This document shows, one piece after another, positions 2,994 to 59,801 of a DNA stretch of 64,000 nt. The first letter of the stretch is position 1. Each line of letters begins with the position of its first letter. The notes beneath the pieces are model-generated. The model was not told the origin of the DNA. It was given only the letters and a program-made list of their open reading frames with translations, and ran no database searches. Position numbers and translations under genes: made by a program. Source of the stretch: Shigella phage phi25-307; the sequence record MG589383; one strand, 5' to 3'.

Positions 2994-4486
2994 TATAAAC
3001 CTGTCTGGGACCACGGTCCAAATACGTCTTCAAACGAATCCGCTTCTGTTTTATCAAAACGGAACCCTTTAATAATTGGAAGGAAAATACCTACAGTACC
3101 TTCACGGCCTTTAGAATGAACCCAACCATTACATTCACAATCAGCGATACGTCCAATTAATTTACCTTCACGAGCTTCGGTCATTAATCGTTCACGGTCT
3201 AAATCATGACGCTCGTCTAAAGGAATAAGAACCTTTACACCGTCAACTGTTTTATGAGTTGTATCTTTAAACCCTGAACCACAATCGGTTGTAATACGAC
3301 GACAACGTGATACGAGTTCGACACCACCTAATTTGTTAGGGTCTTTAGAGTGTTCATAGTATCCTACAACTTCTAAAGCGATATCAATAACTTCTTTAAA
3401 TTTAATTAGGTTCTTAGAGCGTTTGTTTTCCCAATATGAATCACGGTTTTTAAGGATAATACCTTCAAGACCTTGGTCAACATATTTTTTATAAACTACT
3501 TTAGCTTCGTCAAGATTACGAACTAACTGATTTTCAATTGGTTCAATTCGCTTAAAGCCTTCAGCCATATTTTCAAGAGCAGCAAAACGAACATCGTATT
3601 TCTGACCTTTAATTTTGCCGTCAGAATAGACTTCATCTAAAGGAACATAGTCCCAGGCTTGAAGAACCATACCTTCCGCTTCTTTAGGAGAAATAGTCCC
3701 TTGAAGAGATTTATTTGCTAAACCATTTGAAGTGCTACGGTCTGCAACTTGTACTTCTTCGGATTCTTCATTATCACCAAATAAGAACGACAGGTCATTT
3801 CCTGAGCTCACAGCCTTTTTAATATCGAATGAATGATAAACTAATTCACCGTCGATTAAAACCCCATTAGGGTGTCTTTCACGAGCTTCTTTAGTCATTT
3901 CCATTAGTTCATCCGCTAATAGAGTAAGACCATGGTATTCGTTACCAGCACGAGAAAAGAATTGAACACCATCATCGCGAACTTCAGCGAAACAACGAGC
4001 ACCATCTGCTTTTAATTGGGCAAATGCGGGCCATTTAATATTTTTAGTAATCAATTTCTCATCATATGCAGATGCTAACATCTGTGGTTGCAATTGAATA
4101 AGTCCAGGCCACACCTTATTCGCGATAGACACTGAAGCACCTACTTCAAGGTCGCGCATCATTACACGACGAAGGACTTCTACATCATCAGGTTTACCAT
4201 CAGCGATATAACCCATGAGCTCTTTAATTGCAGCATTACCGGTGAGTTTACGAGTGGCTAATGTGAACTCAATAAAATCCAACATGTCATCTAATTCAAG
4301 AAGACCATATGCTTGAGACCTTTCACCCGGTCCTGGCCATTTCTTAATATAATACTGGATACCACGTGCATATGTTAAACGATACACACGTTCAAGTAAT
4401 TTGTTGTCCTTATTTTTCTTAAGGATTTCTTGTTTTGTTTTAGTAGAACCGATCGCAGCTATTTGGTTTAAAATATCTAAAATCAT
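2993..4486 (-). CDS. 30: ATP-dependent DNA ligase, 497 aa
   Basis: Adenylation motif KADGAR; N-terminal region closely resembles T4 gp30 as remembered; size and position between alt and rIII match T4. Confidence 0.92.
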   Translation of the reverse strand: MILDILNQIAAIGSTKTKQEILKKNKDNKLLERVYRLTYARGIQYYIKKWPGPGERSQAYGLLELDDMLDFIEFTLATRKLTGNAAIKELMGYIADGKPDDVEVLRRVMMRDLEVGASVSIANKVWPGLIQLQPQMLASAYDEKLITKNIKWPAFAQLKADGARCFAEVRDDGVQFFSRAGNEYHGLTLLADELMEMTKEARERHPNGVLIDGELVYHSFDIKKAVSSGNDLSFLFGDNEESEEVQVADRSTSNGLANKSLQGTISPKEAEGMVLQAWDYVPLDEVYSDGKIKGQKYDVRFAALENMAEGFKRIEPIENQLVRNLDEAKVVYKKYVDQGLEGIILKNRDSYWENKRSKNLIKFKEVIDIALEVVGYYEHSKDPNKLGGVELVSRCRRITTDCGSGFKDTTHKTVDGVKVLIPLDERHDLDRERLMTEAREGKLIGRIADCECNGWVHSKGREGTVGIFLPIIKGFRFDKTEADSFEDVFGPWSQTGL

Positions 4487-44772: not shown

Positions 44773-46986
44773 TTATTTGGCCGCTTCCACGGCCTTCATG
44801 AATTTAACGATTTGAGCGACCTGTTCTTTGGAAAGAGTACCACGTCGTCCCATGTATTCTGACACAATATGATAATTGGTTTCGAATTCAATAACCATTT
44901 TATCATCATTATCGTAAGCATTATCTTTAAGCTTATCGAAAATTTTAGCACACAATTCTAACTTCTTATTCAGGTCTGTATTAGTAGCACCTGCGAATCG
45001 ATTCCATCCCCAACGATTATTTACTGTTGAGAGTTTTGCAAAGTCTTTACTGATTTCTTTGTTCTTAGAGCTAAAATACTTACTAAGGAAGTTAAGCTCT
45101 TCGTTACGAGTAATATGATTCAAATAAGGCTGTGCTCTACGACTTGGTGATACATACTCATCATAATCCACTTTGTCAATTAGCGTAATATAGTCATTAA
45201 TTGATTTTTCGAACAAGCATTCTACTTCACCAAGTTTACGAACTTTCTTAGCAATCTGTGGACGGACTACAGTGAACTCTTTAATACCTGACAAATCAGC
45301 AATACGAGTCAAGAAACTAGAATCATAGTTCAACCAACCTTTATCTGCGTCAAGACATTCGGCGTTAGAACGATTACGAATTACAACATAACCTTGAATC
45401 TCATCGGCTTTACCGGCCGGAATAAAGAGATCTTCTGATACCCAAACATCGTTTTCATTCTTAAAGAACCGATGAGCACTTGGGGATTTAGGACGAGGCT
45501 GCGATGAACGTTCTTTAACTTCAATCCACGGTTTAACTAATGCAAGAATTTCAGAGGTCTTATAAAATTTAAGGCTATCACCAGCGAAAATAACCTTTAA
45601 TCGTTCTAGAAGTTTCATTGCAACTTCATCTTCCGGATTAACGAATAATACGCTACTACCCCATCCGGAAGGAACCTTATCAACGAGTGTTGATGCATCG
45701 GTGGAAGTCAAAGCATCGTTCAGAGCACGCATCATTGGTACGCGGCCTTTCACATCGTCAATAACAATATCAATATGCTTACGACTAATACCTAGCAGGC
45801 TATTAATTGAAATAGTTGAAGACGAGCTTCCGCTTTCACGAATACGACGAAGTCGTGGATCTGAAACGATATCGTATACAACACCAAGGTTGCACCATTC
45901 AGGTCCCATTTTAAACCGTTTGTACAACTCAGAATAAGTTAGCTGTTCTTTAGAATATTTCAGTGATTCAATATTAGAACCGGCTTTTTCCATGTATTTA
46001 CGAGCAGAGTAACCAAGAGAATCGATTTCACGGAATACATGACGTGGATATTCACAATCAATCCATTTCTTAGAATCTTCAGCAAATAATTTTGCATCGA
46101 TTTCTGCAACACGTTTATGGATATTTGCTACTGTACGTTTATCAAATGACAATGCTTCACGAGACGGGGCTACATCTAGTTCACCCATAGGGAATTTAAT
46201 ATAAGCTGTAGTGCATCGCGTCATCATCCATGTTTGTTCTTTAATAACACTTCCGATTGGATATACAATACCACCATAAACAGCCATGATATTACCACGT
46301 TCACCCCATGGAGCTTCCTTGGCTAAATAAACATCATCGAATTCCGGGAAGTATTTGATATCTTTAACACCACGAACTTCTGCAATATCGCCGAGAGGAC
46401 GCATAACATATGCAATTTCAGATGCGAACTTTTCAAAATCTTCTGGGTTAACCGGTACAACTACTTCTACACCCGTACGGTCATCAGGGCCCATCTTATC
46501 TACAAAGGTTGGCTTAATCTGTGGACCGCTGTCATCTTGATAAATTACATAACCACGAACTTCACCGTTGTGATAAGACGTAAGGTTAAACGTATCGGTA
46601 TACGCTAGTGGAGCTTTAGAGCCGAGTCCGAATCCACCAATGAAATCGTTACTCGATGTTTTAGTTGAAGCAAAATATGAATTATAGATTCCTGGCTCTT
46701 CGTCATTACCTCGAATGGTGAAATCACTCATACCAGGACCAAAGTCTCGAACTACAAAACGTGGGTCTAAACGACCTGGAGCCTGAACAATAAACTTATC
46801 AGTGCAACCATTAAGAATTTGACCATCGATACAGTTTGTGATTAATTCGCGTACACAAGCCAATTCTTTGTTTGTATAAAGGTCATTAGACAAAATCTTA
46901 TAAACTTTGCTATTGCCTTGAATAGTAAATGCTGTGCTCTTATCGCCTGAACCAATAATCGTTTCTTTAGCCGTTTCAATAATCAT
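44773..46986 (-). CDS. rIIA: rIIA protein, 737 aa
   Basis: Size close to T4 rIIA (about 725 aa); N-terminal GHKL-ATPase-like region matching remembered T4 rIIA (ELITN.ID...FGPGMSDF, YNSYF.S.K..SNDFIGGFGLGSK). Confidence 0.95.
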   Translation of the reverse strand: MIIETAKETIIGSGDKSTAFTIQGNSKVYKILSNDLYTNKELACVRELITNCIDGQILNGCTDKFIVQAPGRLDPRFVVRDFGPGMSDFTIRGNDEEPGIYNSYFASTKTSSNDFIGGFGLGSKAPLAYTDTFNLTSYHNGEVRGYVIYQDDSGPQIKPTFVDKMGPDDRTGVEVVVPVNPEDFEKFASEIAYVMRPLGDIAEVRGVKDIKYFPEFDDVYLAKEAPWGERGNIMAVYGGIVYPIGSVIKEQTWMMTRCTTAYIKFPMGELDVAPSREALSFDKRTVANIHKRVAEIDAKLFAEDSKKWIDCEYPRHVFREIDSLGYSARKYMEKAGSNIESLKYSKEQLTYSELYKRFKMGPEWCNLGVVYDIVSDPRLRRIRESGSSSSTISINSLLGISRKHIDIVIDDVKGRVPMMRALNDALTSTDASTLVDKVPSGWGSSVLFVNPEDEVAMKLLERLKVIFAGDSLKFYKTSEILALVKPWIEVKERSSQPRPKSPSAHRFFKNENDVWVSEDLFIPAGKADEIQGYVVIRNRSNAECLDADKGWLNYDSSFLTRIADLSGIKEFTVVRPQIAKKVRKLGEVECLFEKSINDYITLIDKVDYDEYVSPSRRAQPYLNHITRNEELNFLSKYFSSKNKEISKDFAKLSTVNNRWGWNRFAGATNTDLNKKLELCAKIFDKLKDNAYDNDDKMVIEFETNYHIVSEYMGRRGTLSKEQVAQIVKFMKAVEAAK

Positions 46987-46998
46987 ATTTTTCTCTCA

Positions 46999-47199
46999 TC
47001 ACAAGTTACGTTTAAAAATTTCTGCTACTTCAAGAAGTTCTTCTTTAGTAGCTGTATCGGTTTGTATTTTATATCGAATTTCCTTAAAGCGTTCTTTAAA
47101 GGCTTCAGCTGATTCGATATCAAAAAATCTTTGGATAAGCCGGAATTCCCGGAGCACAGCTTTATCAAAAAGTTCCAAGTCCACGTTATATGTTCTCAT
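46999..47199 (-). CDS. Hypothetical protein, 66 aa (rIIA.1 position)
   Basis: ORF directly upstream of rIIA. Confidence 0.5.
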   Translation of the reverse strand: MRTYNVDLELFDKAVLREFRLIQRFFDIESAEAFKERFKEIRYKIQTDTATKEELLEVAEIFKRNL

Positions 47200-47224
47200 A
47201 ATATTCTCTTCAGTAGATTCCTAG

Positions 47225-47275
47225 GGCACTATTACTAAAGACCATATAATCTATCATCTTATGTGTAATAGTGCC
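47225..47275. repeat. 11-bp inverted repeat (GGCACTATTAC / GTAATAGTGCC) around a 29-nt AT-rich loop containing TATAAT
   Basis: Perfect arms at 47225-47235 and 47265-47275. Confidence 0.6.
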
Positions 47276-47291
47276 TCAGGCTATTCAGGAT

Positions 47292-48392
47292 TTACGCTGT
47301 GAAGATTTTATCCCACATCGCAACAACTGCATCTCGGTTATACTTCTTCCATACTGCTTCAGCACGTTTAACTCGAGCTTCGTATGTATCAGTGAATTCT
47401 AATACAGCTTTTGTGTAAAGCGCAACTACTTCTTTCTTAGGAGTAGAGGAATCAATTTCTACACGCACAGTATCTGGGTCGTATTCAAATGTCGCATGAG
47501 GATAATCCTTAAAAACTAACTGGATTACAGGGACACCTTTAGAGATGGCTTCAATAGAACTATTCTCTACCGTACCTGTGTCAGGACATGTATTAATAAG
47601 TGCTTTAGCTGTTTTAAGACGTTCCATGATTTCACTGTGTGGAGCATCAATAATAACAGGATATTTAGCTGGTGGTGCCCATTTGCTTGGACAGTATCCT
47701 ACACCATTTTCGCCTAGTGCTTTAATCGCTTCAAGAGCAACATCAGTACGACGCATTTTAGTGTCATAACGTTGTGCACTAATAATCAGATCAGTCGCCG
47801 GAAGAACTTCAGGTTTCTCATTCAAACAAATAACCGGATAATCTTCGGCTTCAAACAACGGATTTGCTCGCCAATAATCATAATCAATTTTGTCAGTCAG
47901 AGCTGAAGTCATATGGCAATATTTACGTTCAAATTCACGGAAGGCTTTAGTAGGAGCATAACTCTTACCGCCATTCTTATGAATTTGAATAGTCTGGTCC
48001 CAAATTTGAACAATGCCACGAGATACCGGTTCAAATGGTGTTGCCATAAAATTCTTATGAACTTTAGAGAGACCTGCGTCTTTAATTGCCTGAACGGTTA
48101 GTTTAGTCGGTTCCATAGTAACAACAAAATCGTATTCATGGATGCCGGCTAGTTCAACAATCTTACGAGCCATAGTATAACTCATACCTAGACTGAATTT
48201 AGTCAGATGACCAACAGGATGGTGTGTAACTTTCCAGTCACCAAACGTGTCATTATCAAAGCCGATATAATCAATATCAGCACCAATGGACACAAGATAT
48301 TTCAACACATTTAAATGTACTGCTTCAAGGCCACCTTGTACACGGTCAGGATTAAATGGGACTGCACGAGATGGGATAAACATAACTTTCAT
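47292..48392 (-). CDS. GT-B fold glycosyltransferase-like protein (GT4-like motifs), 366 aa
   Basis: N-terminal Rossmann start MKVMFIPS...GGLEAVHLNVLKYLVSIG.DIDYIGF and C-terminal E-x7-E-like segment TGTVENSSIEAISKGVPVIQL resemble retaining GT-B glycosyltransferases; no obvious match to remembered T4 alpha- or beta-glucosyltransferase N-termini. Confidence 0.55.
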   Translation of the reverse strand: MKVMFIPSRAVPFNPDRVQGGLEAVHLNVLKYLVSIGADIDYIGFDNDTFGDWKVTHHPVGHLTKFSLGMSYTMARKIVELAGIHEYDFVVTMEPTKLTVQAIKDAGLSKVHKNFMATPFEPVSRGIVQIWDQTIQIHKNGGKSYAPTKAFREFERKYCHMTSALTDKIDYDYWRANPLFEAEDYPVICLNEKPEVLPATDLIISAQRYDTKMRRTDVALEAIKALGENGVGYCPSKWAPPAKYPVIIDAPHSEIMERLKTAKALINTCPDTGTVENSSIEAISKGVPVIQLVFKDYPHATFEYDPDTVRVEIDSSTPKKEVVALYTKAVLEFTDTYEARVKRAEAVWKKYNRDAVVAMWDKIFTA

Positions 48393-48404
48393 AATTAAGC
48401 CTTA

Positions 48405-48436
48405 TTAAAATTAAAATGAAGCTCCCGAAGGAGCTT
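48405..48436 (-). terminator. Intrinsic terminator overlapping the HNH endonuclease stop codon
   Basis: AAGCUCC-UUCG-GGAGCUU hairpin (48419-48436) followed by CAUUUUAAUUUU on the minus strand. Confidence 0.6.
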
Positions 48437-49232
48437 AGGACATCCAACACATTTTATAACCTTTGCAGGTTCTGTTAGGATTATTTAATGCTTTCAATAT
48501 ATTAGAAGACCCTATATCTAAATACTCCCTTAATTCATAAAGATAGTTAAAATCAATAGTTTCACCTGTTTTTACACTTGTGATTCTTATAGGCCTTCTT
48601 TCATATTTAGATTTATACAACTCTCTAGTCTTAGCTTTAGTTTCTTCTGACCTAGGAGTGTATGGTTTAAATCCTTTTGTTTTAAATGTTTCCATTCTTG
48701 ATTTAGTTATTTTATCCTGGTGTTCTTTTGTTTTTACAGGTGCTTTTCGCCCATTCTCCCAAGATAACTTGTTGGCCTGTATTATTTTATCTATTGCTTC
48801 TTGCGTATGAGTTTTACCATAAAATGGATTTAATTCGCCTATACGTTGTGAAGCAATATGTGACATTAATTCTCTTGTTGCTTTAGTATGTTTTTTACCT
48901 TTAAATGGGTTGCCATTTTTAGCAATCCATTCTTTCATAAATCTAGAGTGCTCTTTAGAGAATTCTTGTTTAAGCCAATCATAATCTCTAGAATTTCTAG
49001 CTCCCATGTAAAAAGCTCTAATAGCCATAAGCATAGAACGGTTCTTATGAATTTTATAAAGCAATAAATGGGCGATAAAATGCTCTCTAGGGGTCATTTT
49101 AACTAGATTTGATTTAGCATTACTCCCACCCATAGATTTAGGCAAAATATGGTGAGTTTCAGTATAATTAGGAATAGTGCTGCGGTTTTTAGCCGCAGCG
49201 ATAAGTTTATCATAAATTTTACGATAATTCAT
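48435..49232 (-). CDS. HNH homing endonuclease (Mob-like), 265 aa
   Basis: HNH motif TETHHILPKSMGGSN...NLVKMTPREHFIAH and repeated NPF(K/Y)GK.HT NUMOD-like motifs; start overlaps the gene 39 stop (TAATG). Confidence 0.8.
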   Translation of the reverse strand: MNYRKIYDKLIAAAKNRSTIPNYTETHHILPKSMGGSNAKSNLVKMTPREHFIAHLLLYKIHKNRSMLMAIRAFYMGARNSRDYDWLKQEFSKEHSRFMKEWIAKNGNPFKGKKHTKATRELMSHIASQRIGELNPFYGKTHTQEAIDKIIQANKLSWENGRKAPVKTKEHQDKITKSRMETFKTKGFKPYTPRSEETKAKTRELYKSKYERRPIRITSVKTGETIDFNYLYELREYLDIGSSNILKALNNPNRTCKGYKMCWMS

Positions 49233-51052
49233 TATCCTAGCATCCAATCTTTACGGAGTTCAGGGTCGTTACCCATGAGCATTTCAAATAGTTCTTTCCA
49301 ATTTTCAGGAAGTTTAACTACGTCGTACACAGGGTTTTGAATCATTTCTTTATATTCATCCCGCTGAAGTGAGCCCAATCCCTTGATGTATCGAATACTA
49401 TGCTTAGGCAGTGTATCTTTGGCTTCTTCATACTCAGCTACAGTATAAAACCATTTTTGAGTTTTGCCAATTTGTGCAATAATTACAGGCGTTTTAACAA
49501 AGCGAATACGTCCTTGTTCAAACAATTCAGGCCAATTACTAAAGAAAGCAAGCAAAGCCGGATAAATACTTCCAAGACCGTCATGATCGGCATCGGTCAT
49601 AATTGCAATATTACGATAGTTCGTATTCTCTGCCTTTTCACCAAGAATAAGACCTGTGATAGCACAGATATCAAAGAGCTCTTTGTTCTTCATCATATCA
49701 GCATATGACATACCCCAGCTATTCATCACCTTACCACGTAATGGGAATCCACCGTGTAGTTCACGGTCACGAACATCAATGAGATAACCAATTGCCGAAT
49801 CACCTTCTGTTAAAAACAATGTCGTATCTGCATCTTTACCACATTGGTTAGCTTTAATATGCTTATGAACCTTAGCTTTAGTTGCCTTTTTAGCTGCTTT
49901 AGTTTCTGCAGCCTTTTCTGCTGCCAATTTACGAGCTAATGCTGCTTCAACAATAGGCATAATCAAAGCTTCATTTTTAAGAAGTGCCTGAGCAATTTTC
50001 TTAGCATCTAATTGGATATGATTACGAATATCACCATACGTTGACGTTAAACGTTCTTTAGTCTGAGAATCAAAACGCATGTTGCTCATGTCTCTAATAA
50101 ACATCAACATTGTGAGGCATTCTTTAACACGAGCTTTAGTGACTTCAATACCCTTATATTTCTTTTTAATACCGGGCAAAAGATGTTCGCAGATATCATC
50201 CATTACACATTCAACATGATGACCACCATTTTTAGTATGGATGTTATTCACATAAGTTAAATGACGGAAGCCATCTGGTGATGTTGTGAATGCTATAGAG
50301 ACTTTATCATTTTCTTGAATGATGTTATCTTCGCCAAATTGTTTAGCAAATCGTTTAAAATTACCATCAACCTTTTTACCATTAAATGTGAACTTGATAT
50401 CAGGATAAACGACTGCCAATGTTTGAAGACGGTCTAAAGTAATATCTAAATAAATTTGAGATAAATTATGCTCTTCAAATGAAGAGAAATCAGGAGTGAA
50501 GATTACTTTAGTGCCTTTACCTTTAGATTTCTTAGAAGACCATGATTTGTTTTCCATTCCGTTTGAACAGTTAACAGTGATTTCATTTTCGCCATCTGAC
50601 GTGATGCCTGTAAACAACGTAGAGAAGATATTAGTTAAACTACTCCCGACGCCGTTCATACCACCAGTCTTGCGTTCAGAGTCATCACCAAAGTTACCAC
50701 CGGCCTTTGGAATAGTCCAGGCCGCTACAGGCCCAGGAATTTGTTCACCTGTTTGGTCGGTAACTAAACCTTGAGGAATACCACGTCCGTTATCTTCCAC
50801 TGAGACTTGATTATTTTTAATTTGCACATCAATTTTATTTGCAAACTTAAATGATGTACGAATAGCTTCATCAACCGAGTTGTCAATAATCTCATCGATT
50901 AATTTAACAAGACCAGGAACATATTCAACTTGTTGATATTTACCAAACAAAAAACGCTCATGGGCTTCTTTAGCCGAAGAACCAATATACATGCCACTGC
51001 GTTTCTTAATATGTTCTACATCTGACAATACCTTAATTTCATTTTTAATCAT
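49232..51052 (-). CDS. 39: DNA topoisomerase II large subunit, single fused ORF equivalent to T4 39 plus 60, 606 aa
   Basis: GyrB-like ATPase N-terminus (HIKKRSGMYIGS, VDEAIR...DNGRGIP) and TOPRIM region in one continuous frame. Confidence 0.92.
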   Translation of the reverse strand: MIKNEIKVLSDVEHIKKRSGMYIGSSAKEAHERFLFGKYQQVEYVPGLVKLIDEIIDNSVDEAIRTSFKFANKIDVQIKNNQVSVEDNGRGIPQGLVTDQTGEQIPGPVAAWTIPKAGGNFGDDSERKTGGMNGVGSSLTNIFSTLFTGITSDGENEITVNCSNGMENKSWSSKKSKGKGTKVIFTPDFSSFEEHNLSQIYLDITLDRLQTLAVVYPDIKFTFNGKKVDGNFKRFAKQFGEDNIIQENDKVSIAFTTSPDGFRHLTYVNNIHTKNGGHHVECVMDDICEHLLPGIKKKYKGIEVTKARVKECLTMLMFIRDMSNMRFDSQTKERLTSTYGDIRNHIQLDAKKIAQALLKNEALIMPIVEAALARKLAAEKAAETKAAKKATKAKVHKHIKANQCGKDADTTLFLTEGDSAIGYLIDVRDRELHGGFPLRGKVMNSWGMSYADMMKNKELFDICAITGLILGEKAENTNYRNIAIMTDADHDGLGSIYPALLAFFSNWPELFEQGRIRFVKTPVIIAQIGKTQKWFYTVAEYEEAKDTLPKHSIRYIKGLGSLQRDEYKEMIQNPVYDVVKLPENWKELFEMLMGNDPELRKDWMLG

Positions 51053-51074
51053 GTTGTCTCCTCGTTATGAAGGT

Positions 51075-51099
51075 ATTCTATCATCCGAAATCTAAAGCA
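51075..51099 (-). promoter_or_regulatory. MotA-dependent middle promoter for gene 39 (TGCTTTA, 12 nt, TAGAAT)
   Basis: Minus strand TTTGCTTTAGATTTCGGATGATAGAAT, just downstream of the UUCG hairpin terminator at 51104-51115. Confidence 0.45.
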
Positions 51100-51100
51100 A

Positions 51101-51115
51101 AAAGGGCCGAAGCCC
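51101..51115 (-). terminator. Intrinsic terminator (GGGC-UUCG-GCCC plus UUUUUG)
   Basis: Short GC hairpin with UUCG loop directly after the stop of ORF 51116..51541. Confidence 0.5.
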
Positions 51116-51541
51116 TTATTTAAATTTAATTTTCTGAAGTGCATCAATTGCAGCCAAACGCCCTTGTTCACTTTTAACTGTAATGACCACATCGCCTGAT
51201 ACGATCACCGAACCATCAACAAATTCTATAGAGCCTTTTTTGAAATCGACAGATGTATCTGGTTCCGGAACTTCTTCAAAGAATTTAAATTCTGCACCAT
51301 AAAGCAGAATATCACCTTGCATACTATGAATAGTTCGGCCATAATCGCCTACGGCTTCTACAGCAATCACAGAAACGCCGTAACCAATCATCTCTTCCAC
51401 AATAAAATCTTTGGACAATAAAGTAGTATGCAGATTAGTATTAAGACGTTTACCAGTCGTATTAAGAATTCTCAAGAAATTATCTTCCTGTCCTTTGATA
51501 ATACGATATTTCTTACCAACTTCAAAACCTTTAAAAGCCAT
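51116..51541 (-). CDS. Hypothetical protein, 141 aa
   Basis: ORF upstream of gene 39. Confidence 0.55.
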   Translation of the reverse strand: MAFKGFEVGKKYRIIKGQEDNFLRILNTTGKRLNTNLHTTLLSKDFIVEEMIGYGVSVIAVEAVGDYGRTIHSMQGDILLYGAEFKFFEEVPEPDTSVDFKKGSIEFVDGSVIVSGDVVITVKSEQGRLAAIDALQKIKFK

Positions 51542-51543
51542 AA

Positions 51544-51723
51544 TTAACCCTTCTTAAGTAAGTCGTAAAAACCACCGTTCACATGTTTAGGAGCAGAAAC
51601 CCGACGAGTAGACAAACGATGACATTCAGGGCAAACATCGTTTTCTCGTTCAGAAATTCTTTTAATTTTTTCATATTCATGACCACAATCTTCAGATTGG
51701 CATTTATAGTCGTATAACGGCAT
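51544..51723 (-). CDS. Zinc-ribbon protein (FmdB-like CxxC...CxxC), 59 aa (below ORF-track cut-off)
   Basis: Hand translation MPLYDYKCQSEDCGHEYEKIKRISERENDVCPECHRLSTRRVSAPKHVNGGFYDLLKKG; fills the gap between flanking genes with 2-nt spacers. Confidence 0.65.
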   Translation of the reverse strand: MPLYDYKCQSEDCGHEYEKIKRISERENDVCPECHRLSTRRVSAPKHVNGGFYDLLKKG

Positions 51724-51725
51724 TA

Positions 51726-52136
51726 TTATTCCTTAAAATGTGCTTTCAACATTTGATACAAAGACCATGCCTGGTCGTTATTTTCGATAGTAATCGTCAT
51801 CACCGGAAATTCAGACAATTCGTCAAGTTCACCAGAATCTTGCTCTTCGGACGCTTGATATGGATTTTCAACTTCGTCAAAGAACTCTGCTTCATTCGTG
51901 GAGAGCCAGATAAAGTTTTCATCAAGGATATCACCGCCTGTTGCGTATCCAACCGTGCCAGTAGATGTCACAATTTTAGTAGGACGGCCAAGATGGTCAA
52001 CATCTAATACTTTAAATGGTTCCATGCCAAGACGTCGTGCATAAATCCCATTATCAGTGTGGTCTTTAATAAACTCTTCTTGGGCACGTTTATCTATAAA
52101 TTGGTACCATGAGTTAACGCGGAATTTATTAGCCAT
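51726..52136 (-). CDS. Hypothetical acidic protein, 136 aa
   Basis: Start trimmed to the ATG overlapping the upstream stop (TAATG); begins [10 protein letters not shown]. Confidence 0.5.
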
Positions 52137-52363
52137 TAGTAAGTTTCCTTCCAATAAGTTGTACCGTTTTCAGTGATTTCACGGAAGATACCATAGATAG
52201 GCATTTCATCACCGAGTTTTTCGTAAACGTAAATCACTTCTGTGTAGCATAAAAATTCGGTCCAGTTTTTCTGTACAACAACTAAATCAGGATTAAACAG
52301 AACATCTTCAAACTCATCGATGTTTGAATCAGTAGTTACGTTTTTAATGATTTGGCGTTTCAT
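52136..52363 (-). CDS. Hypothetical protein, 75 aa
   Basis: Start trimmed to ATG 52363, preceded by GAGGAG and the promoter at 52392-52420. Confidence 0.5.
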
Positions 52364-52391
52364 AATATTCTCCTCTTGTTTTGATAGGTCT

Positions 52392-52420
52392 ATAGTAACA
52401 CATCTAGAGGAGAAGTAAAC
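52392..52420 (-). promoter_or_regulatory. PeSL-like early promoter cassette (family A)
   Basis: Minus strand GTTTACTTCTCCTCTAGATGTGTTACTATAGACCTATC. Confidence 0.55.
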
Positions 52421-52424
52421 AACT

Positions 52425-52844
52425 TTATGCAAAAGATGCTGGACAATATTTTTTGATTTGGAACTCAGGAACTACCATGAACTGTCCAGCGAAAACGATG
52501 TTATAAAGCTTAACACCATCTTCTACCCAACGGTCGCTAATAAATCCGGCGATTTGCTTAGTTTTCCACGGCGTTCCATCGGTTCCCGCAGCAATAGTGA
52601 ATTCATGGTCTTTTACAACTAAAACAGACCTGCACAGTTTCCATTTGAACGCTTTTTCTTCTGGCTCAATGAATTGGCTTGAGACGTAGCCAATGTTGCC
52701 ATCGGCGTCACGAACTTTAACTTGATGTGGACTAAAGAGTCCACAACTTACAGAAAGAACTTCAACCAACTTCCCGGCAACTTTAGAGCGAGAAGCAACA
52801 GATACATATACGTAATCACCTGTAGAGAGATTTACAATATTCAT
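52425..52844 (-). CDS. Hypothetical protein, 139 aa; paralog of 52854..53309
   Basis: Shares VSVASRSKVAGKLVEV and FISDRWVEDGVKLYNIVFAGQF with its upstream neighbour. Confidence 0.6.
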   Translation of the reverse strand: MNIVNLSTGDYVYVSVASRSKVAGKLVEVLSVSCGLFSPHQVKVRDADGNIGYVSSQFIEPEEKAFKWKLCRSVLVVKDHEFTIAAGTDGTPWKTKQIAGFISDRWVEDGVKLYNIVFAGQFMVVPEFQIKKYCPASFA

Positions 52845-52853
52845 AATAATTCC

Positions 52854-53309
52854 TTAAGCTTTACGAGGAGACACATAGCGAGTGATTTCAGATTCTTTAA
52901 CAACTCGGAAGTCACCTAAGAATACGATATTGTATAACTTTTCACCATCTTCAACCCATTGGTCACTAATGAAGCCACACATAGTATCAGTTTTGCTTGG
53001 ATAACCGTATTCGTCGATGTAATCAAATTCTTTATCGGTTATAAATTCAACGCCTTTGCAAAGGGCCCATTTGAACTGTACATTAGGTTCAGTAGAAGCA
53101 AAATGAGCACTCACATGAGTTTCCAGGAATTTAGGACTTACGTAAGCGTACTGAGTATCCTGACGTCCAAAACTAGGAATGATTCGAACTTTAACTTCTT
53201 TAATACGTCCCATGCCATTTGTGCGAAGTCCGACAACTTCAACCAGACGACCTGCGGCTTTAGACCGGGATGCAGTTGATACACGCTTAATTTCACCAAT
53301 AGTAATCAT
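52854..53309 (-). CDS. Hypothetical protein, 151 aa; paralog of 52425..52844
   Basis: Start trimmed to ATG 53309 (the track start lies inside the -10 element); shares STASRSKAAGRLVEV and FISDQWVEDGEKLYNIVFLGDF with its neighbour. Confidence 0.6.
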   Translation of the reverse strand: MITIGEIKRVSTASRSKAAGRLVEVVGLRTNGMGRIKEVKVRIIPSFGRQDTQYAYVSPKFLETHVSAHFASTEPNVQFKWALCKGVEFITDKEFDYIDEYGYPSKTDTMCGFISDQWVEDGEKLYNIVFLGDFRVVKESEITRYVSPRKA

Positions 53310-53339
53310 AATTTTTCTCTCTTTGTTTAAGTTGAATTC

Positions 53340-53369
53340 ATTATACTCCATCCATCCTTGGATGTAAAC
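53340..53369 (-). promoter_or_regulatory. Early promoter (GTTTAC, 18 nt, TATAAT)
   Basis: Minus strand GTTTACATCCAAGGATGGATGGAGTATAAT. Confidence 0.5.
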
Positions 53370-53374
53370 TGGTT

Positions 53375-54052
53375 TTATCGCTGTTTTACACTTAACGGGT
53401 CAGGATTTTCAGGGACATCTTCAAGGCCAAGCGCATAACGCTGAGCATATTTTAACATCAAAATATCTTTAGCACAATCATGAATACTATCATGGGCAAC
53501 GAATCCTTTTAACGTACCCAACGGTAATGGACACATACTTAATCCTCGTGTCAACGAGTAAGCTTCGATTGCCGTACGAATATCGCGTTGAGCCCAGAAT
53601 TTAACCGGTTCTAATTTATCAGTATCAATCTCTGGTTCAGGAACACCTTCATCACGATAGAGGTCACGAATCAAATCGACTAATATCGGGAAGTCAAAGC
53701 TCATACCACGGCACCACATCTGTGATTTCCATTGGTCAACTTTATTAGCTCGACAATAATCTAAAAAGATTTTAATGCCTTCAAGCGTAGTGACATCGTC
53801 TTCAGACGGAGCCAAGTTTTTACGTGCTTCAGCCGATTGTTCTTTCCACCATTTCATAGTGGATTTAGCGAAAACTCGCTTCCCTTTCTGAGAAGCTAAA
53901 TTAAATTTAATTCGTTTACCTCGTTGAACAAGTTCTTCAAATGATTCAACAACTTCAGGGTCGGAATTATATGCAATAACCGCAAGGTCAATAACAGCCG
54001 CTTTTGATGTATTGCCGAATGTTTCAAAATCTATAATAACATCAGTGCTCAT
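53375..54052 (-). CDS. dexA: Exonuclease A (DnaQ-like 3'-5' exonuclease), 225 aa
   Basis: N-terminal DnaQ Exo I motif VIIDFETFG; size close to T4 DexA (227 aa); position upstream of dda as in T4. Confidence 0.75.
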   Translation of the reverse strand: MSTDVIIDFETFGNTSKAAVIDLAVIAYNSDPEVVESFEELVQRGKRIKFNLASQKGKRVFAKSTMKWWKEQSAEARKNLAPSEDDVTTLEGIKIFLDYCRANKVDQWKSQMWCRGMSFDFPILVDLIRDLYRDEGVPEPEIDTDKLEPVKFWAQRDIRTAIEAYSLTRGLSMCPLPLGTLKGFVAHDSIHDCAKDILMLKYAQRYALGLEDVPENPDPLSVKQR

Positions 54053-54061
54053 AATTTTCTC

Positions 54062-55375
54062 TCAAATAAAATGGACGTCAAACCGGCCACGAGTTGTGCC
54101 GACATACAATAACTGTTTAGCTAATTCTGAATCGGCATAATGGATACACGGTGTATAAACAAAGGCCGTGTCAACAGACATACCCTGGGCCTTATGGAAG
54201 GTTGATACTGGTAGTGCCTTCACCTTAGTGAACATACGTTTAGCATCCCAGAATTCGCTCCATGGAGCTTTACCACCTTTATTCCAAAATTTGTATGTTT
54301 CTGCGGTCTTAGCCAAAAACAAATTGAATTTATAAAGCTCTTCTTCAGAAGAAATAACCTTTATATCTTCGCGGATGTATTCTTCATCATCCCCATATGT
54401 TTCTACTGTAAGATTCCAGTATCGTATCATATATTCGCCCGAAACACCACGTGCTTTAACGAATGTAGACGTTTCTACAGCATCTCTAATACGAACGAAT
54501 TGGCCGTTATTGAAAAGCATTTCGGTAATATTTTTACCATCTAGCTTATATGTCTTAGTAAATGGCTCCTGTAGAACAATGACTTCGTCTTTAATAAATG
54601 GTTTTTCTGTTTCAAGAAGTTTTCGTCGAATAATTGAATTTAACTTGTCCACCGACTTATTTGTGAATGCCATCATTCGATTTTCGAAAAGGTCTTCAGG
54701 AGTTTTAACGACGTTAAAATAGTTCATCATATACGATTTAAGGTCTGTATATCCGTGAACACCATGTCCATCAACTACTTTATCGTAAATCCATTTGCCA
54801 TTACGAATATCAGTAGCAACATCAATAATTGGTGCATTGCTACGTTTAACTTCTGTAAGGTTGCATTGCACGAAGTCTTTGTGAGTGAAGAAAGGACTTA
54901 GATACGCAGTTGATTCGCCTGGGTCTACCGGACGAATCTGGCATCGGTCGCCGATGCCAATTACTGTACACCATTTAGGGATACTAGCTAACATTATTTT
55001 AAACAGAGAACGGTCGCACATTGACGCTTCATCAAATAACAGTACACGGCACAAGGCTAGGTCTGGAACCTTTTTCTGTTCAAACAATACGTTTTCTTCG
55101 TATGTAGTTGGGTTGATTTTAAGAATGCTATGAATAGTCGATGCTTCTTGTCCCGCAAGTTTACTTAGAACCTTTTTAGCGGCATGTGTAGGGGCTGCTA
55201 AAATAATACCTGATTCTCCAGAAGAAATAAGGGCTTCAACGATGAATCTAGTAAGGGTTGTTTTACCTGTACCAGCAGGCCCATTAATAGTTACGTGATG
55301 TTTCTTTTCTTTAATAGCGTTCATAACAACGTTGAAGGCGTTTTTCTGGCCTTCAGTCAAATCATCAAATGTCAT
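54062..55375 (-). CDS. dda: Dda DNA helicase (SF1B), 437 aa
   Basis: Walker A INGPAGTGKTTL, Walker B LLFDEASM; size close to T4 Dda (439 aa). Confidence 0.9.
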   Translation of the reverse strand: MTFDDLTEGQKNAFNVVMNAIKEKKHHVTINGPAGTGKTTLTRFIVEALISSGESGIILAAPTHAAKKVLSKLAGQEASTIHSILKINPTTYEENVLFEQKKVPDLALCRVLLFDEASMCDRSLFKIMLASIPKWCTVIGIGDRCQIRPVDPGESTAYLSPFFTHKDFVQCNLTEVKRSNAPIIDVATDIRNGKWIYDKVVDGHGVHGYTDLKSYMMNYFNVVKTPEDLFENRMMAFTNKSVDKLNSIIRRKLLETEKPFIKDEVIVLQEPFTKTYKLDGKNITEMLFNNGQFVRIRDAVETSTFVKARGVSGEYMIRYWNLTVETYGDDEEYIREDIKVISSEEELYKFNLFLAKTAETYKFWNKGGKAPWSEFWDAKRMFTKVKALPVSTFHKAQGMSVDTAFVYTPCIHYADSELAKQLLYVGTTRGRFDVHFI

Positions 55376-55683
55376 CGTAAAGTCCCTGCAATTGGAATAC
55401 TAACAATACGGCCTGTATCCAGGATTCGTTGATACAATTTTTGCGTCTCCGCATCTAGTTTAACGTGTTTCATTTCAAGCTTATTAAACCAGAACTTACG
55501 CGGAGTTTCGACCATTCTTAGAACTCCCATTTTTAAATCTGTTTTATACTGTGTTTTCAAAGTATCGAAAACTTTATCTGCAATATCCTTTCTAAAAAAT
55601 ACTGCAGGACGATGCTCATCAAGTGGAACCGGGACAGTAAATCCTTCCATATCTCGATAAACTATTGCATATACATAAACCAT
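55372..55683 (-). CDS. Hypothetical protein, 103 aa (dda.1 position)
   Basis: ORF with 4-nt overlap onto the dda start. Confidence 0.5.
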   Translation of the reverse strand: MVYVYAIVYRDMEGFTVPVPLDEHRPAVFFRKDIADKVFDTLKTQYKTDLKMGVLRMVETPRKFWFNKLEMKHVKLDAETQKLYQRILDTGRIVSIPIAGTLR

Positions 55684-55685
55684 AA

Positions 55686-56432
55686 TTAACCTTTAATCAG
55701 TTGGAATAATGATGCGCTAAGTGGTAAGCCACGTTTCAATTTTAATTTACCAATGAAACCGATCTTTTCAAAACGTTGCAGACCTTGGATAACTTTATCA
55801 TATGTATCGAAAAGCGATTCAGCGTCAGTTAATTTAGTTTTAGTTTTCCAGTCAGAGCCTTTAAGAAGAACGTTGAGTTTAGTAAGTTCATGGCCTTCTG
55901 CTTGATGCGAGCCATTAATGCGTGCTTTCAAAGCAACAATTCTAAGTTTAGCTTCGTCAGATAAAGGTTGATTTTTCATCATGTTCGCCATATGCTTAAC
56001 ACGATTTTCACGTTTTGCTCGGATTTTTAAAATGGTATCATAAACCTTTTTAATTTGGGCCCATTTCTTCTCGTCGAGATTAAGTTTCTCTACTTTACGG
56101 GCGGAAGGATTAGCGATACGTCTTGCAATAGCGTCACGTTTCTCAATAAGTTCTTCTAATGTTAAATCAGAACGAGCCGTGTTATATTTTTTCTTAACTG
56201 GGATAACATTACCTTTAATGTAACCGATATCGTTATTAAAACGTTCTAAGGATAATTTCTCACCTTCAACAGAGTTATTGAAAGATTCACCTGAGTAAGC
56301 GCAGACCTTTTGATCAAGAATGTTTTTAAGGTAATTAAAGTCTAAGTTAAAATCCTTAGAGCGTCTCTTCGCAGAAGCTCTGGTGTGGTCAAGACGACGA
56401 TTGATTTTGTTAATTTTATTATTTGATAACAT
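55686..56432 (-). CDS. srd: Srd-like protein, 248 aa
   Basis: Size and position (between dda and modA) match T4 srd; no motif check possible. Confidence 0.45.
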   Translation of the reverse strand: MLSNNKINKINRRLDHTRASAKRRSKDFNLDFNYLKNILDQKVCAYSGESFNNSVEGEKLSLERFNNDIGYIKGNVIPVKKKYNTARSDLTLEELIEKRDAIARRIANPSARKVEKLNLDEKKWAQIKKVYDTILKIRAKRENRVKHMANMMKNQPLSDEAKLRIVALKARINGSHQAEGHELTKLNVLLKGSDWKTKTKLTDAESLFDTYDKVIQGLQRFEKIGFIGKLKLKRGLPLSASLFQLIKG

Positions 56433-56585
56433 AATATTTTCCTCTGTCTTACGGACGTTAGGTCATTTAGCTGATATGTCCTATAATATCATGCCCTCAG
56501 GTAGTGTACACTCTTTTTTCGTAAAATGCTTTAATTTTTTATGTGTTATAATGGTTCTGAGTTCCATCCGGTTATTCCAATCCAG

Positions 56586-57194
56586 TCAGTAACCGACAAT
56601 AGACAGATTCCAGATTGTATAACGTCCATCTTGAATAATAGAATCTACACGCAGTGTAGTCCCTATAGGGAGCATAAATTCACATTCGTCAGATATAAGT
56701 CTAGCATTAGACCGTCTTGTCGCTTCAGGGAAAGCTCCATTGAACTCACAAGATGGTGCAGCCAGAATCATATTAAGCATATGTTCACGGAAGTTGAAAG
56801 CAAATGGTGCATCTTTGATGCAGAACATATTAAATGTTCCGTAAAAATTATATGAAGCGAAGTTACGTGCTACACCAAACACCGGACTAAAGCTCATTAC
56901 TCTATCAAATTTAATAATACTACCAACGCCTTTATCATCGAGTGTGGCCATAGTTTTCTTAGAGATTCCACGATACATTGTCTCAGGAACAGAAGACGTC
57001 CAATTTCTACGAACGATTGAACTTAAATCTTTTTGGATGCTGTCTGGCTTGTTTTCCATACATTGCCACAGTACACTTTGTTCAATGTCGCTGAATTGCT
57101 CATCGATTTTGTACTGAAGCATATCTTGATAATCCGGGCATTGAGCACGACGAACCATTTCTTCAATTTCACACTCGTTATACGGCATAAACAT
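56586..57194 (-). CDS. modA: ModA/ModB-family ADP-ribosyltransferase, 202 aa
   Basis: ART triad in order: R (TMYRGIS), S-x-S (VMSFSP), E-x-E (DECEFMLP); size close to T4 ModA (200 aa). Only one mod paralog is present. Confidence 0.6.
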   Translation of the reverse strand: MFMPYNECEIEEMVRRAQCPDYQDMLQYKIDEQFSDIEQSVLWQCMENKPDSIQKDLSSIVRRNWTSSVPETMYRGISKKTMATLDDKGVGSIIKFDRVMSFSPVFGVARNFASYNFYGTFNMFCIKDAPFAFNFREHMLNMILAAPSCEFNGAFPEATRRSNARLISDECEFMLPIGTTLRVDSIIQDGRYTIWNLSIVGY

Positions 57195-57222
57195 TTAGGT
57201 TTCTCCTCTGGTTGATAAAAGT

Positions 57223-57251
57223 ATAGTATCATCGTCGGTAGAGTTTGTACA
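57223..57251 (-). promoter_or_regulatory. Early promoter for modA (TGTACA, 17 nt, TACTAT)
   Basis: Minus strand GTGTACAAACTCTACCGACGATGATACTATAC, followed by GAGGAG and the ATG. Confidence 0.5.
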
Positions 57252-57380
57252 CTAAAAATTCAACATTTTTAAATGAATGATTTTGTTAGGTATTCGCGTT
57301 CTTGAAGTTCAGATTGACATGTCATGATAGACCTCCATTTAAAGATAAGCCTATCATAACACGAGAGGAGGGAATGTAAA

Positions 57381-57545
57381 CTACTTTTTAAGCTTTCCTA
57401 CTAAAGGTCCATCAGGTCCAGGTTGTTCTAACATGAATAAGGATGCTTTAAAAAGCAATGCCAACCCTTTCACCATTCGATACCATGTCTCAAAGTCTTT
57501 TTCCTTGATTTCTAGTAAGAATTTCTCTTTAAATTTCTCTTTCAT
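57381..57545 (-). CDS. Hypothetical protein, 54 aa (below ORF-track cut-off)
   Basis: Hand translation MKEKFKEKFLLEIKEKDFETWYRMVKGLALLFKASLFMLEQPGPDGPLVGKLKK; ATG overlaps the upstream stop (ATGA). Confidence 0.4.
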   Translation of the reverse strand: MKEKFKEKFLLEIKEKDFETWYRMVKGLALLFKASLFMLEQPGPDGPLVGKLKK

Positions 57546-57730
57546 TTCCAAGGACTCCATGGTGGAGGGTCGTCATAATAAGAGGCAAGGTCTTTCAGGG
57601 CTTCAACAGGTAAACTACAGCCGTGACGTTGTATAATACTATCTAGTTCATCAACAAGTTCACTACGATGCACTTTAGGAGCCTCAACTTCGGGCTCATC
57701 AAACATACTCATCAAGTCCATATTATTCAC
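57542..57730 (-). CDS. Hypothetical acidic protein, 62 aa
   Basis: ORF with 8-nt overlap onto the upstream gene. Confidence 0.5.
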   Translation of the reverse strand: MNNMDLMSMFDEPEVEAPKVHRSELVDELDSIIQRHGCSLPVEALKDLASYYDDPPPWSPWK

Positions 57731-58187
57731 CGAGATAAAAACTAGCAGGTTCAGAGAATGTTTCTAGCGCTACACCTTTTGTCTTAAAAAATTTCCAAAT
57801 AGCTCGTTGCAAATGGATTAAATCTGCTAATGATGTAATAAAGTATTTTTTGGCAAAATACTTATGGTCTCGCTTTTCAAACAGGTCTAAACGCTTTTCT
57901 GGATTCACATAAACGGCATTTTCCGTAGATTCATAACCTAAGTCCTTTATGCCTTCTTCAAGACTAAACGGAGAATTTTTAGAATGAGTAATAGCTCCAA
58001 CTCGCTCTACACGAATTTTGTAACCTTTAGGAATCTGCAATTTACAGAATTCTTCTACGATATATTGCGGATTATTTAGACTTTTGTTAATGAGAATAGC
58101 TATTTCTAGTGGAGTCTTATCTTCTACTGGTATATGTTTAAACGACTTGGCTTCAAGCAAATACATTTTAAATAACATAGCATCCAT
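57723..58187 (-). CDS. Hypothetical protein, 154 aa
   Basis: ORF in the modA-soc interval. Confidence 0.55.
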   Translation of the reverse strand: MDAMLFKMYLLEAKSFKHIPVEDKTPLEIAILINKSLNNPQYIVEEFCKLQIPKGYKIRVERVGAITHSKNSPFSLEEGIKDLGYESTENAVYVNPEKRLDLFEKRDHKYFAKKYFITSLADLIHLQRAIWKFFKTKGVALETFSEPASFYLGE

Positions 58188-58393
58188 TATAATTTCCTCG
58201 ATGGTTCACCCATATAAAGTTTTACAATACGTTCGCCTTCATCTTCGATGAGCTTCTCTTCATGTTTCTGGAATTCTTTAGCCATATTCTCTTCAAGAAC
58301 ATCCAGCCAATCTTCTGGACCGACACCATCGTCCCAGCTTTTAAACCATTTAACTATCTTGTTCATTCGCAGCTCCCTGAGCTTGAACCACAA
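58187..58393 (-). CDS. Hypothetical protein, 68 aa
   Basis: ORF whose ATG overlaps the downstream gene start region. Confidence 0.5.
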   Translation of the reverse strand: MWFKLRELRMNKIVKWFKSWDDGVGPEDWLDVLEENMAKEFQKHEEKLIEDEGERIVKLYMGEPSRKL

Positions 58394-58563
58394 TCAGAAT
58401 AACTTGACCCAGAATCACCAGGCCAAGACGATACGTATGAATGATTATAATCGGAAGAGCTTGAAGCATTAACCTGTTTTGTTTTTGGACGAACAACTTC
58501 TTCCATCATTCCGTCACCGATATATTCCCAACTTTTTTCGTGTGTATCAGGAATAGGCATCAT
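58363..58563 (-). CDS. Hypothetical Ser-rich protein, 66 aa
   Basis: Track ORF 58363..58686 trimmed to the first ATG after the upstream stop, preceded by AAGG. Confidence 0.4.
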   Translation of the reverse strand: MMPIPDTHEKSWEYIGDGMMEEVVRPKTKQVNASSSSDYNHSYVSSWPGDSGSSYSDCGSSSGSCE

Positions 58564-58576
58564 ACCTTCGCCTGGA

Positions 58577-58804: not shown

Positions 58805-58832
58805 ATTGTTCTCCTCTTGAGTAAGTAAGAAT

Positions 58833-58862: not shown

Positions 58863-58871
58863 TGTAGAAAC

Positions 58872-59189: not shown

Positions 59190-59708
59190 TCAGTAACCAT
59201 TATCCTGGCGTTCAAAGTTGTGTTGGTTTTTCAGGTAATACAGTTTGAAGATTTCTTCAGCAGAAAGTCCTAGACCTTGGAACATATTTAGAACGAAATG
59301 TAGGATATCAATCATCTCGAATTTAATTTCAAGCTGGTCTTCAGGAGACAGTTCATCGATACGACGATTTCGATATTCAGCATGTTGTGCCTTCCACGGC
59401 TTCCATACAGAGCTAGCGGCTTTTTCACCATTGCTCATACCACCAAGTGAAGTCAGCAGTTCACGGAATTCATCATCAATATAATCTTTCTGATTACGCA
59501 GCCAATCAACAACATCACCAGCAGTAGCCAATTCATCAGGATGTTTGTTATGTTCAGGCTTGTCATTTGCCAGACGAACCTGTAAAGATTTCTGCATATC
59601 AAGCATTACCTGCAGAGGGTCTTTATCTTCGTGAATCAGGGCATTAAAATAAGCTTCTTCTGCTTTATCAACACCAGAAATAAGTTGTGAACATTCGTTA
59701 AAGTGCGC
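59190..59708 (-). CDS. 56: dCTP pyrophosphatase (dCTPase/dUTPase) gp56, 172 aa
   Basis: Start trimmed to MAHFNEC; close match to remembered T4 gp56 (DPLQVMLDMQ, FRELLTSLG, SPEDQLEIKFE..D..HFVLNMF.GLG, EEIFKLYYLKN); position between soc and 61. Confidence 0.75.
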   Translation of the reverse strand, partial: AHFNECSQLISGVDKAEEAYFNALIHEDKDPLQVMLDMQKSLQVRLANDKPEHNKHPDELATAGDVVDWLRNQKDYIDDEFRELLTSLGGMSNGEKAASSVWKPWKAQHAEYRNRRIDELSPEDQLEIKFEMIDILHFVLNMFQGLGLSAEEIFKLYYLKNQHNFERQDNGY

Positions 59709-59801
59709 CATTATTTTTCCTTTCAATTCAGTATAAGAGAGTTTAATTCTAACATTAATTTTATAAAGCGTAATAAATAATAAGGTAACTAAGGAGATAT
59801 T

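Follow-up and report, generated by a model that had tools for sequence, protein, structure and literature searches.

The stretch of DNA analysed here, 64,000 nucleotides of Shigella phage phi25-307 (sequence record MG589383; 'the window' in what follows is this whole stretch), carries a glycosyltransferase gene between rIIA and gene 39. An initial annotation had taken it for a possibly novel or divergent DNA sugar transferase and linked it to hydroxymethylcytosine (hmC). The gene is the already described ORF003c/gp3 of phage RB69, and we consider it highly probable that it encodes the Mosigvirus DNA arabinosyltransferase gp3, a soluble uridine diphosphate (UDP)-sugar-dependent enzyme of the GT-B fold, most likely adding the second arabinose of the modified base.

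The gene and its locus

In the ORF (open reading frame) list of the window, a 366-amino-acid (aa) frame with an ATG start lies on the minus strand exactly where the initial annotation had placed it. Its G+C content, 0.38-0.40, is ordinary for the region. The features used below are:

44773-46986: rIIA (ORF list).
46999-47199: rIIA.1 (Pfam T4_RIIA1).
47292..48392, minus strand: probable DNA arabinosyltransferase gene, 366 aa, GT-B fold; ortholog of RB69 ORF003c/gp3 and of the HY126 glycosyltransferase (9iqz/9ir0).
47556..47570, minus strand: codons E276 to E281, an acidic pair in the C-terminal nucleotide-sugar-binding domain; conserved in family alignments, putative role by analogy with the EX7E motif of GT4 enzymes.
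48400..48405, minus strand: likely ribosome-binding site TAAGGC, 7-12 nt upstream of the ATG; read from the sequence, identical in RB69.
48419..48436, minus strand: UUCG-tetraloop hairpin and T-rich run, between the upstream gene and the transferase start; found by scan, identical at RB69 3621..3662.
48435..49247, minus strand: free-standing HNH/NUMOD3 homing endonuclease gene (Pfam NUMOD3, E=5e-9; HNH_4 weak).
49232-51052: gene 39, topoisomerase II large subunit (ORF list, RB69 comparison).
59190..59711, minus strand: gene 56 dCTPase, homologue of RB69p028 (168/173 identical; Table 1 of PMC13326640).

We take the 366-aa frame for a genuine gene and not a chance ORF, because it matches PHROG 8302 ('unknown function') end to end (residues 1-366, E=2.5e-222), is identical at 365/366 positions to a PDB chain, and is found in ~154 genomes at >=95% identity. 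The last figure comes from a tblastn search with the window protein, which returned 210 phage records in all, 154 of them at this level.

Mosigvirus (RB69-like) coliphages, AV111, a20, F2 and phiC120 among them, match positions 40000-64000 at 95-97.6% identity, and positions 44773-64000 are collinear with RB69 coordinates 1-20258. Gene order in the window is rIIA, rIIA.1, transferase, HNH insertion, gene 39. The order rIIA.1, transferase, gene 39 also holds in RB69, Bas46 and SQ17, the HNH gene being extra relative to RB69. At this locus the RB69 counterpart is RB69p003 (ORF003c), and that of Bas46 is bas46_0103, annotated in BASEL as 'putative hmC-arabinosyltransferase'.

The transferase locus is constant in these three phages and in ~150 other Mosigvirus genomes. 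The flanking hairpin and HNH gene of the initial annotation are thus real, but its reading of the locus as shuffled accessory content does not hold: the transferase is a fixed feature of the genus, and beside it only the HNH gene is mobile. The statement that T4 has no such gene here agrees with the Tequatrovirus phage fPS-90, where rIIA.1, the HNH gene and gene 39 occur in this order with no transferase between rIIA.1 and gene 39.

Identity, family and fold

The window protein is identical at 361/366 positions to RB69 ORF003c/gp3 (RB69p003, NP_861693.1) and 98% identical to Bas46 bas46_0103. Among complete genomes that encode an identical protein, SQ17 is the closest. Two PDB entries released on 2025-07-16, 9iqz ('phage HY126 glycosyltransferase', apo) and 9ir0 ('... 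with UDP'), hold chains that differ from it by one substitution (365/366 identical; S314 here, F in HY126). Structures of pathway enzymes of phage HY126 have reportedly been solved by He et al. in 2026 (Nat Chem Biol), likely the source of both entries. The proteins of RB69, HY126 and Bas46 share with that of the window their length, their locus between rIIA.1 and gene 39 and their fold; relative to RB69 gp3, the window differs by five substitutions and by the HNH gene standing between transferase and gene 39. The protein is therefore the described RB69 ORF003c/gp3, a member of the PHROG 8302 family, and the initial suggestion of novelty falls away: ORF003c was predicted as the arabinosyltransferase in 2018, its crystal structure with UDP (9ir0) dates from 2025, and the pathway was published in 2025-2026.

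The family is small. A word-indexed search of 5.8 billion non-redundant sequences matched 5 clusters, and 11 proteins at E<=1e-3 came up when 1.84 billion cluster representatives were searched exhaustively with a HMMER profile. A Pfam scan of the window protein matched no family even at E<=10, and no significant match of a hidden Markov model places it in GT4 or in Pfam Glycos_transf_1 or Glyco_transf_4. Sub-threshold Pfam matches (E 0.003-0.05) to GT4-conflict, Glyco_trans_1_4 and Glycos_transf_1 were given by one or two divergent members only. Against PDB sequences the family profile found only 9iqz/9ir0, with no sequence bridge to GT4 or to the T4 alpha-glucosyltransferase (a-gt). The most divergent members lie on metagenomic contigs of 1.5-4.5 kb, together with a T4-like ligase and DsbA, and no modification genes were found beside them on these contigs.

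The window protein is also identical over its full length at 43% to gp77 and at 40% to gp76 of Acinetobacter phage DLP3, which are 58% identical to each other. Because gp76 and gp77 are closer to each other than either is to gp3, their duplication took place inside the Acinetobacter lineage, which makes gp3 co-orthologous to the pair; sequence alone does not bear out the published assignment of gp3 and gp77 as one-to-one partners.

Public annotation of the family is mostly 'hypothetical protein'. HX01 and several Acinetobacter phages have 'DNA alpha-glucosyltransferase', vB_EcoM_JQD51 has 'ATP-binding protein', and 308Ecol101PP has 'putative GDP-mannose-dependent alpha-(1-2)-phosphatidylinositol…', a phosphatidylinositol mannosyltransferase label. 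Given the published chemistry set out below, no annotation among these is accurate, the 'putative hmC-arabinosyltransferase' of Bas46 included. In Shigella phage JK45 (MK962757.1, 2529..4120) the family match is in two pieces over ~1.6 kb, annotated as two hypothetical proteins, which suggests that the gene may carry an insertion of ~0.5 kb or be otherwise disrupted. If the disruption is real, this natural mutant might have only mono-arabinosylated DNA.

An AlphaFold model from the single sequence was unusable (predicted local distance difference test, pLDDT, 37.9) and was replaced by a run on a 13-sequence family alignment, which gave pLDDT 91.4 and a predicted template modelling (TM) score of 0.88. 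The model has two Rossmann-like beta/alpha/beta domains with a cleft between them, the GT-B arrangement that the initial annotation had proposed, and it shows no sign of a signal peptide or a membrane segment. Foldseek places it with 9iqz/9ir0 at TM 0.95-0.97. The next matches, at TM ~0.6 and 10-15% identity, are tetrahydrobiopterin glucosyltransferase, BshA, LmbT, PimA, MshA and WaaG, all GT4-type GT-B enzymes. Judged by the model, the fold is GT-B, and both T4 enzymes are more distant from it than the cellular GT4-like ones. Binding of a UDP donor is indicated indirectly by the deposition of 9ir0 with UDP.

The motifs named in the initial annotation were borne out in part. GGLE is present at residues 20-23. 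The segment described as E-x7-E-like (TGTVENSSIEAISKGVPVIQL, residues 272-292) reads T-G-T-V-E276-N-S-S-I-E281-A-I-S-K-G-V-P-V, that is E276-x4-E281, so that the likeness to the GT4 signature stands for the second Glu and its EAxxxGxPV context but not for the spacing in this C-terminal domain, which is x4. Across family alignments E281 is invariant and E276 nearly so; G273, eight positions before E281, is also nearly invariant. The invariant or near-invariant residues of the family include G20-G21, E94, T118-P119, R125 and G142, followed by Q207-R208, D210, R214, N267-T268-C269, G273-T274, E276, S279, E281-A282 and G286, and finally H299-A300-T301, E303, P306, R340 and R343. By analogy with GT4 enzymes, R208, R214 and the G20-G21 loop would bind the diphosphate and E281 the ribose.

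Cellular GT4-type retaining enzymes (PimA, MshA, BshA, WaaG, sucrose-phosphate synthase) thus resemble the window protein in structure at 10-15% identity, while it has E-x4-E in place of E-x7-E and no Pfam GT4 match at E<=10. It differs from them further in its proposed acceptor, a DNA-borne sugar, and in the beta linkage that the literature assigns to its product, so that it may not share their retaining mechanism. The T4 enzymes a-gt (GT72, PDB 1xv5/1y6f) and beta-glucosyltransferase (b-gt, GT63) are likewise phage GT-B proteins that use a UDP-sugar, act on modified cytosine after replication and serve restriction evasion. As the initial annotation had noted, the window protein does not resemble them: BLASTP against a-gt gave E>=5, and hhalign gave a probability of 0.2% for a-gt and for b-gt, with no close structural homology to b-gt. 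The family profile used for hhalign was shallow, whereas Thomas et al. saw a relationship to a-gt with much deeper HHpred profiles.

The pathway and the step proposed for gp3

Published work (2018, 2025, 2026) already covers the gene with its fold, pathway and biological role. Arabinose was found in RB69 DNA by Thomas et al. (2018, PMC6024577), who predicted a GT-B fold for ORF003c from HHpred matches, nominated it as the arabinosyltransferase and noted homologues in JS09, Shfl125875 and the Acinetobacter phages Acj61 and Acj9. By tandem mass spectrometry and nuclear magnetic resonance, the cytosines of RB69 were then identified as alpha-D-Araf-O5-(5-hydroxy-dC) and beta-D-Araf-(1->3)-alpha-D-Araf-O5-(5-hydroxy-dC), where Araf is arabinofuranose (Lee et al., NAR 2026, PMC13326640). 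The modified base is 5-hydroxycytosine, not hmC (PMC13326640). Mono- and di-arabinosyl-dC were reported independently in Mosigvirus NP of the Durham Collection (PMC13390438), and double arabinosylation is described for Bas46 and Bas47 (PMC12923530).

In the published pathway, 5-hydroxy-dCMP is made by a flavin-dependent synthase, RB69 gp48, which is the 'gene 42-like' homologue of thymidylate synthase (PMC13326640, PMC13390438), and UDP-arabinofuranose is made by RB69 gp55, gp52:53 and gp51 (PMC13326640). The proposed first transferase is gp46:47, and the role proposed for gp3 is that of 'beta-arabinosyltransferase 2' (PMC13326640). In the same study RB69 virion DNA received a third arabinose from UDP-Araf in vitro when DLP3 gp76 and gp77 were both present, and not with either alone.

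The initial annotation was therefore right in kind, in that a DNA sugar transferase tied to restriction evasion lies here, within a DNA-glycosylating pathway (PMC6024577, PMC13326640), and wrong as to the substrate, since Mosigvirus DNA contains arabinosylated 5-hydroxycytosine and not hmC (PMC13326640, PMC13390438). From the hmC toolkit that it had listed in the window, the gene 56 dCTPase was verified (59190..59711). This gene, 97% identical to RB69p028, is the only one of the other listed pathway components inside the window. The main 5-hydroxycytosine/arabinose cluster lies at 24.0-30.6 kb in RB69 and the window ends at ~20.3 kb of RB69; the gene 42 homologue falls outside it. SQ17, which has the identical transferase and the same HNH insertion, has the complete cluster at 24.0-30.6 kb, and comparison with such relatives makes it very probable that the rest of the pathway is present in phi25-307.

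In these phages gp56 dCTPase destroys dCTP, and the thymidylate-synthase homologue hydroxylates dCMP to 5-hydroxy-dCMP, which then enters the DNA. Phage-made UDP-D-arabinofuranose supplies the sugars. The proposed first transferase is RB69 gp46:47, whose gene lies in the main cluster beyond the window; it would set an alpha-arabinofuranose on the 5-hydroxyl of cytosine. The window enzyme would most likely act later, on the DNA polymer, and add a second, beta-(1->3)-linked arabinofuranose to the first sugar; the product would be the di-arabinosyl-5-hydroxycytosine of virion DNA. A longer glycan would widen protection against DNA-targeting host defences. We infer accordingly that UDP-D-Araf is the donor of the window protein, and that the acceptor to which it links the beta-(1->3) arabinofuranose is alpha-Araf on 5-hydroxycytosine in duplex DNA.

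The assignment of the step draws on phyletic pattern. We searched phage records by tblastn with the intact gp46:47-type protein of SQ17, and for the gp3 family with the window protein and a divergent member. The gp46:47-type transferase was found in 347 records: Escherichia (177), Acinetobacter (57), Klebsiella (26) and Serratia (14) phages, with Yersinia, Edwardsiella, Kosakonia, Proteus, Providencia and other phages making up the remainder. The gp3 family was found in ~210 records, which are either Mosigvirus-type Escherichia/Shigella phages, with one place each, or Acinetobacter T4-like phages, with two places each; as an exception, one record is named 'Tegunavirus' and was not inspected. 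In the lineages sampled the gp3 family is always accompanied by the gp46:47 family, and the reverse is not so. One gp3 copy goes with di-arabinosyl DNA (RB69) and two copies go with tri-arabinosyl DNA (DLP3). This nested distribution and the copy number fit a chain-extending enzyme, not a base-proximal one.

The homologues of gp3 and the first transferase differ in their setting. DLP3 gp77 and gp76 (Maestro gp078 and gp077) share with the window protein the invariant G20-G21, R208, R214, E276, E281, H299-A-T and E303, and act on arabinosylated 5-hydroxycytosine DNA with UDP-Araf. They are tandem paralogues in the main cluster of phages with tri-arabinosyl DNA, whereas Mosigvirus phages have one copy, ~21 kb away from the cluster, and two sugars on their DNA. 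In Maestro and DLP3 the tandem copies stand at the cluster end, in the order isomerase, bifunctional kinase/uridylyltransferase, phosphatase, 5-hydroxy-dCMP synthase, first transferase, kinase, gp77, gp76. RB69 gp46:47 and DLP3 gp79, the proposed alpha-arabinosyltransferases, belong to the same pathway, are GT-B proteins with GT4-like neighbours and presumably use the same UDP-Araf donor. They form a different and more widespread family (347 vs ~210 phage records), with a length of 299 aa, no BLAST relationship to gp3 reported and synteny with the 5-hydroxy-dCMP synthase, and they would place a sugar onto the base and not onto a sugar.

Several points weigh against this assignment. The role of gp3 is marked as proposed, not confirmed, in PMC13326640, and the accessible literature reports no direct gp3 assay. 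The single DLP3 transferases were inactive and only the gp76 and gp77 pair worked (PMC13326640), so by analogy a single gp3 may need a partner or may act differently. As gp3 is a co-ortholog of gp76 and gp77, its step is not readable from sequence. The nearest structural neighbours are all retaining enzymes (GT4/GT5), while the second linkage is beta, the opposite anomer to the alpha of the first; this is a mechanistic puzzle. Finally, the remaining pathway lies outside the window, and its presence is drawn from relatives that are 96-97% identical.

The structural neighbours of gp46:47 are of the same retaining GT-B kind (PMC13326640), yet an alpha linkage followed by a beta one requires, if both enzymes draw on the same donor, retention by one of them and inversion by the other. 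It is conceivable, if doubtful, that the window enzyme works by inversion, as a beta-(1->3)-D-arabinofuranosyltransferase with a retaining-type scaffold, an E-x4-E centre and a DNA-borne sugar as acceptor, representing a mechanistically distinct GT-B family that is an orphan in sequence.

The original proposal of 2018 had the RB69 protein, nominated as 'the' arabinosyltransferase on HHpred matches to GT-B enzymes including T4 a-gt, set the first arabinose on the modified cytosine (PMC6024577), and the BASEL label of the Bas46 ortholog follows the same line. We regard a base-proximal role as improbable. That proposal predates the intact gp46:47, which was split by a sequencing error in 2018 and overlooked (PMC13326640). 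gp46:47 lies inside the conserved cluster, adjoins the 5-hydroxy-dCMP synthase and occurs in every arabinosylating lineage sampled, while tblastn found the gp3 family absent from the cluster-bearing Klebsiella, Serratia, Yersinia, Edwardsiella and Kosakonia phages. For Thanatos, a phage with mono-arabinosylated DNA, the gp46:47-type enzyme is the only one of the two reported (PMC13326640).

The closest structural neighbours glycosylate acceptors other than DNA, and a lipid, a small molecule or a component of the cell envelope could be the acceptor here too, a reading for which the initial annotation had left room. This is very unlikely in view of the homologues DLP3 gp76 and gp77 (40-43% identical, full length), which act on DNA in vitro (PMC13326640), of the confinement of the family to phages with the cytosine-arabinosylation cluster, inside which it lies in Acinetobacter phages, and of a copy number that follows glycan length on DNA; the lack of an apparent signal peptide or membrane segment in the model points the same way. 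Least credible, to the point where we give it almost no weight, is a divergent T4-like hmC glucosyltransferase, the function implied by those GenBank records that read 'DNA alpha-glucosyltransferase'. Sequence similarity to a-gt or b-gt is lacking, the structure is nearer to cellular GT4 enzymes than to a-gt, and Mosigvirus DNA has arabinose on 5-hydroxycytosine, neither glucose nor hmC.

For annotation, this means that the hmC pathway assumed in RB69-like phages is wrong and that arabinosylated 5-hydroxycytosine is made instead. For users of such phages in therapy, CRISPR editing or sequencing, the transferase gene predicts di-arabinosylated DNA, which affects sensitivity to restriction enzymes, type IV systems (BrxU/GmrSD) and CRISPR-Cas, as well as nanopore base-calling. 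According to PMC13216743, which cites Mahler et al. 2025, deletion in Bas46 of the arabinosyltransferase Aat, which may be the counterpart of the window gene, made the phage susceptible to a plasmid-encoded defence system.

HNH insertion, hairpin and other flanking features

Relative to RB69, the HNH gene is an insertion of 794 bp at 48447..49240, in the last codons of gene 39. The C-terminus of gp39 reads KEWMS* in RB69 and KDWMLG* here, and the HNH ORF now ends in CWMS*; it has taken over the original C-terminal codons of gene 39 (…WMS*) together with the hairpin. No more than 29 phage records have the insertion (99.6-99.9% identity), with both Mosigvirus and Tequatrovirus (fPS-90, vB_EcoM_F1) among them, and it is absent from RB69 and Bas46. 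This near-identity implies a recently mobile homing endonuclease that would target gene 39, with a very recent transfer between genera. The HNH gene probably begins downstream of the TTG listed for its ORF; in SQ17 and fPS-90 the annotated genes measure 798 bp.

Arrival of the transferase together with the HNH element was considered and rejected, since RB69 and Bas46 have the transferase without the HNH gene and the Tequatrovirus phage fPS-90 has the HNH gene without the transferase. Their proximity is a coincidence, and the HNH gene is not part of the modification system.

The hairpin (AAGCTCC-TTCG-GGAGCTT and a T-rich run, 48436..48419) lies upstream of the transferase and after the HNH stop codon. 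Because the identical hairpin directly follows gene 39 in RB69, which has no HNH gene, we regard it as belonging with gene 39, at its 3' end, and as unconnected with the HNH gene. It is likely to be a partial terminator or an RNA-stabilising element of the gene 39 transcript. No other terminator-like site was found in the region, where chance alone would give 1.7; this count of one is statistically weak and conservation carries the argument. Between the transferase stop and rIIA.1, at 47225..47275 on the minus strand, an 11-bp perfect inverted repeat (GGCACTATTAC … GTAATAGTGCC, loop ~29 nt) was read by eye. It has no T-run and so is not a canonical intrinsic terminator.

Farther along, the window lacks three stretches of ~0.5 kb relative to RB69 and SQ17, with junctions at ~52397/52361, ~53369/53303 and ~57286/57282. 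They correspond to motB.2, to the motB.1/RB69p012 region and to nearly all of modB (ADP-ribosyltransferase); modA is present (56586..57194) and is followed by no modB-sized ORF. The three absences are ordinary accessory-gene plasticity, among which the loss of modB is notable.

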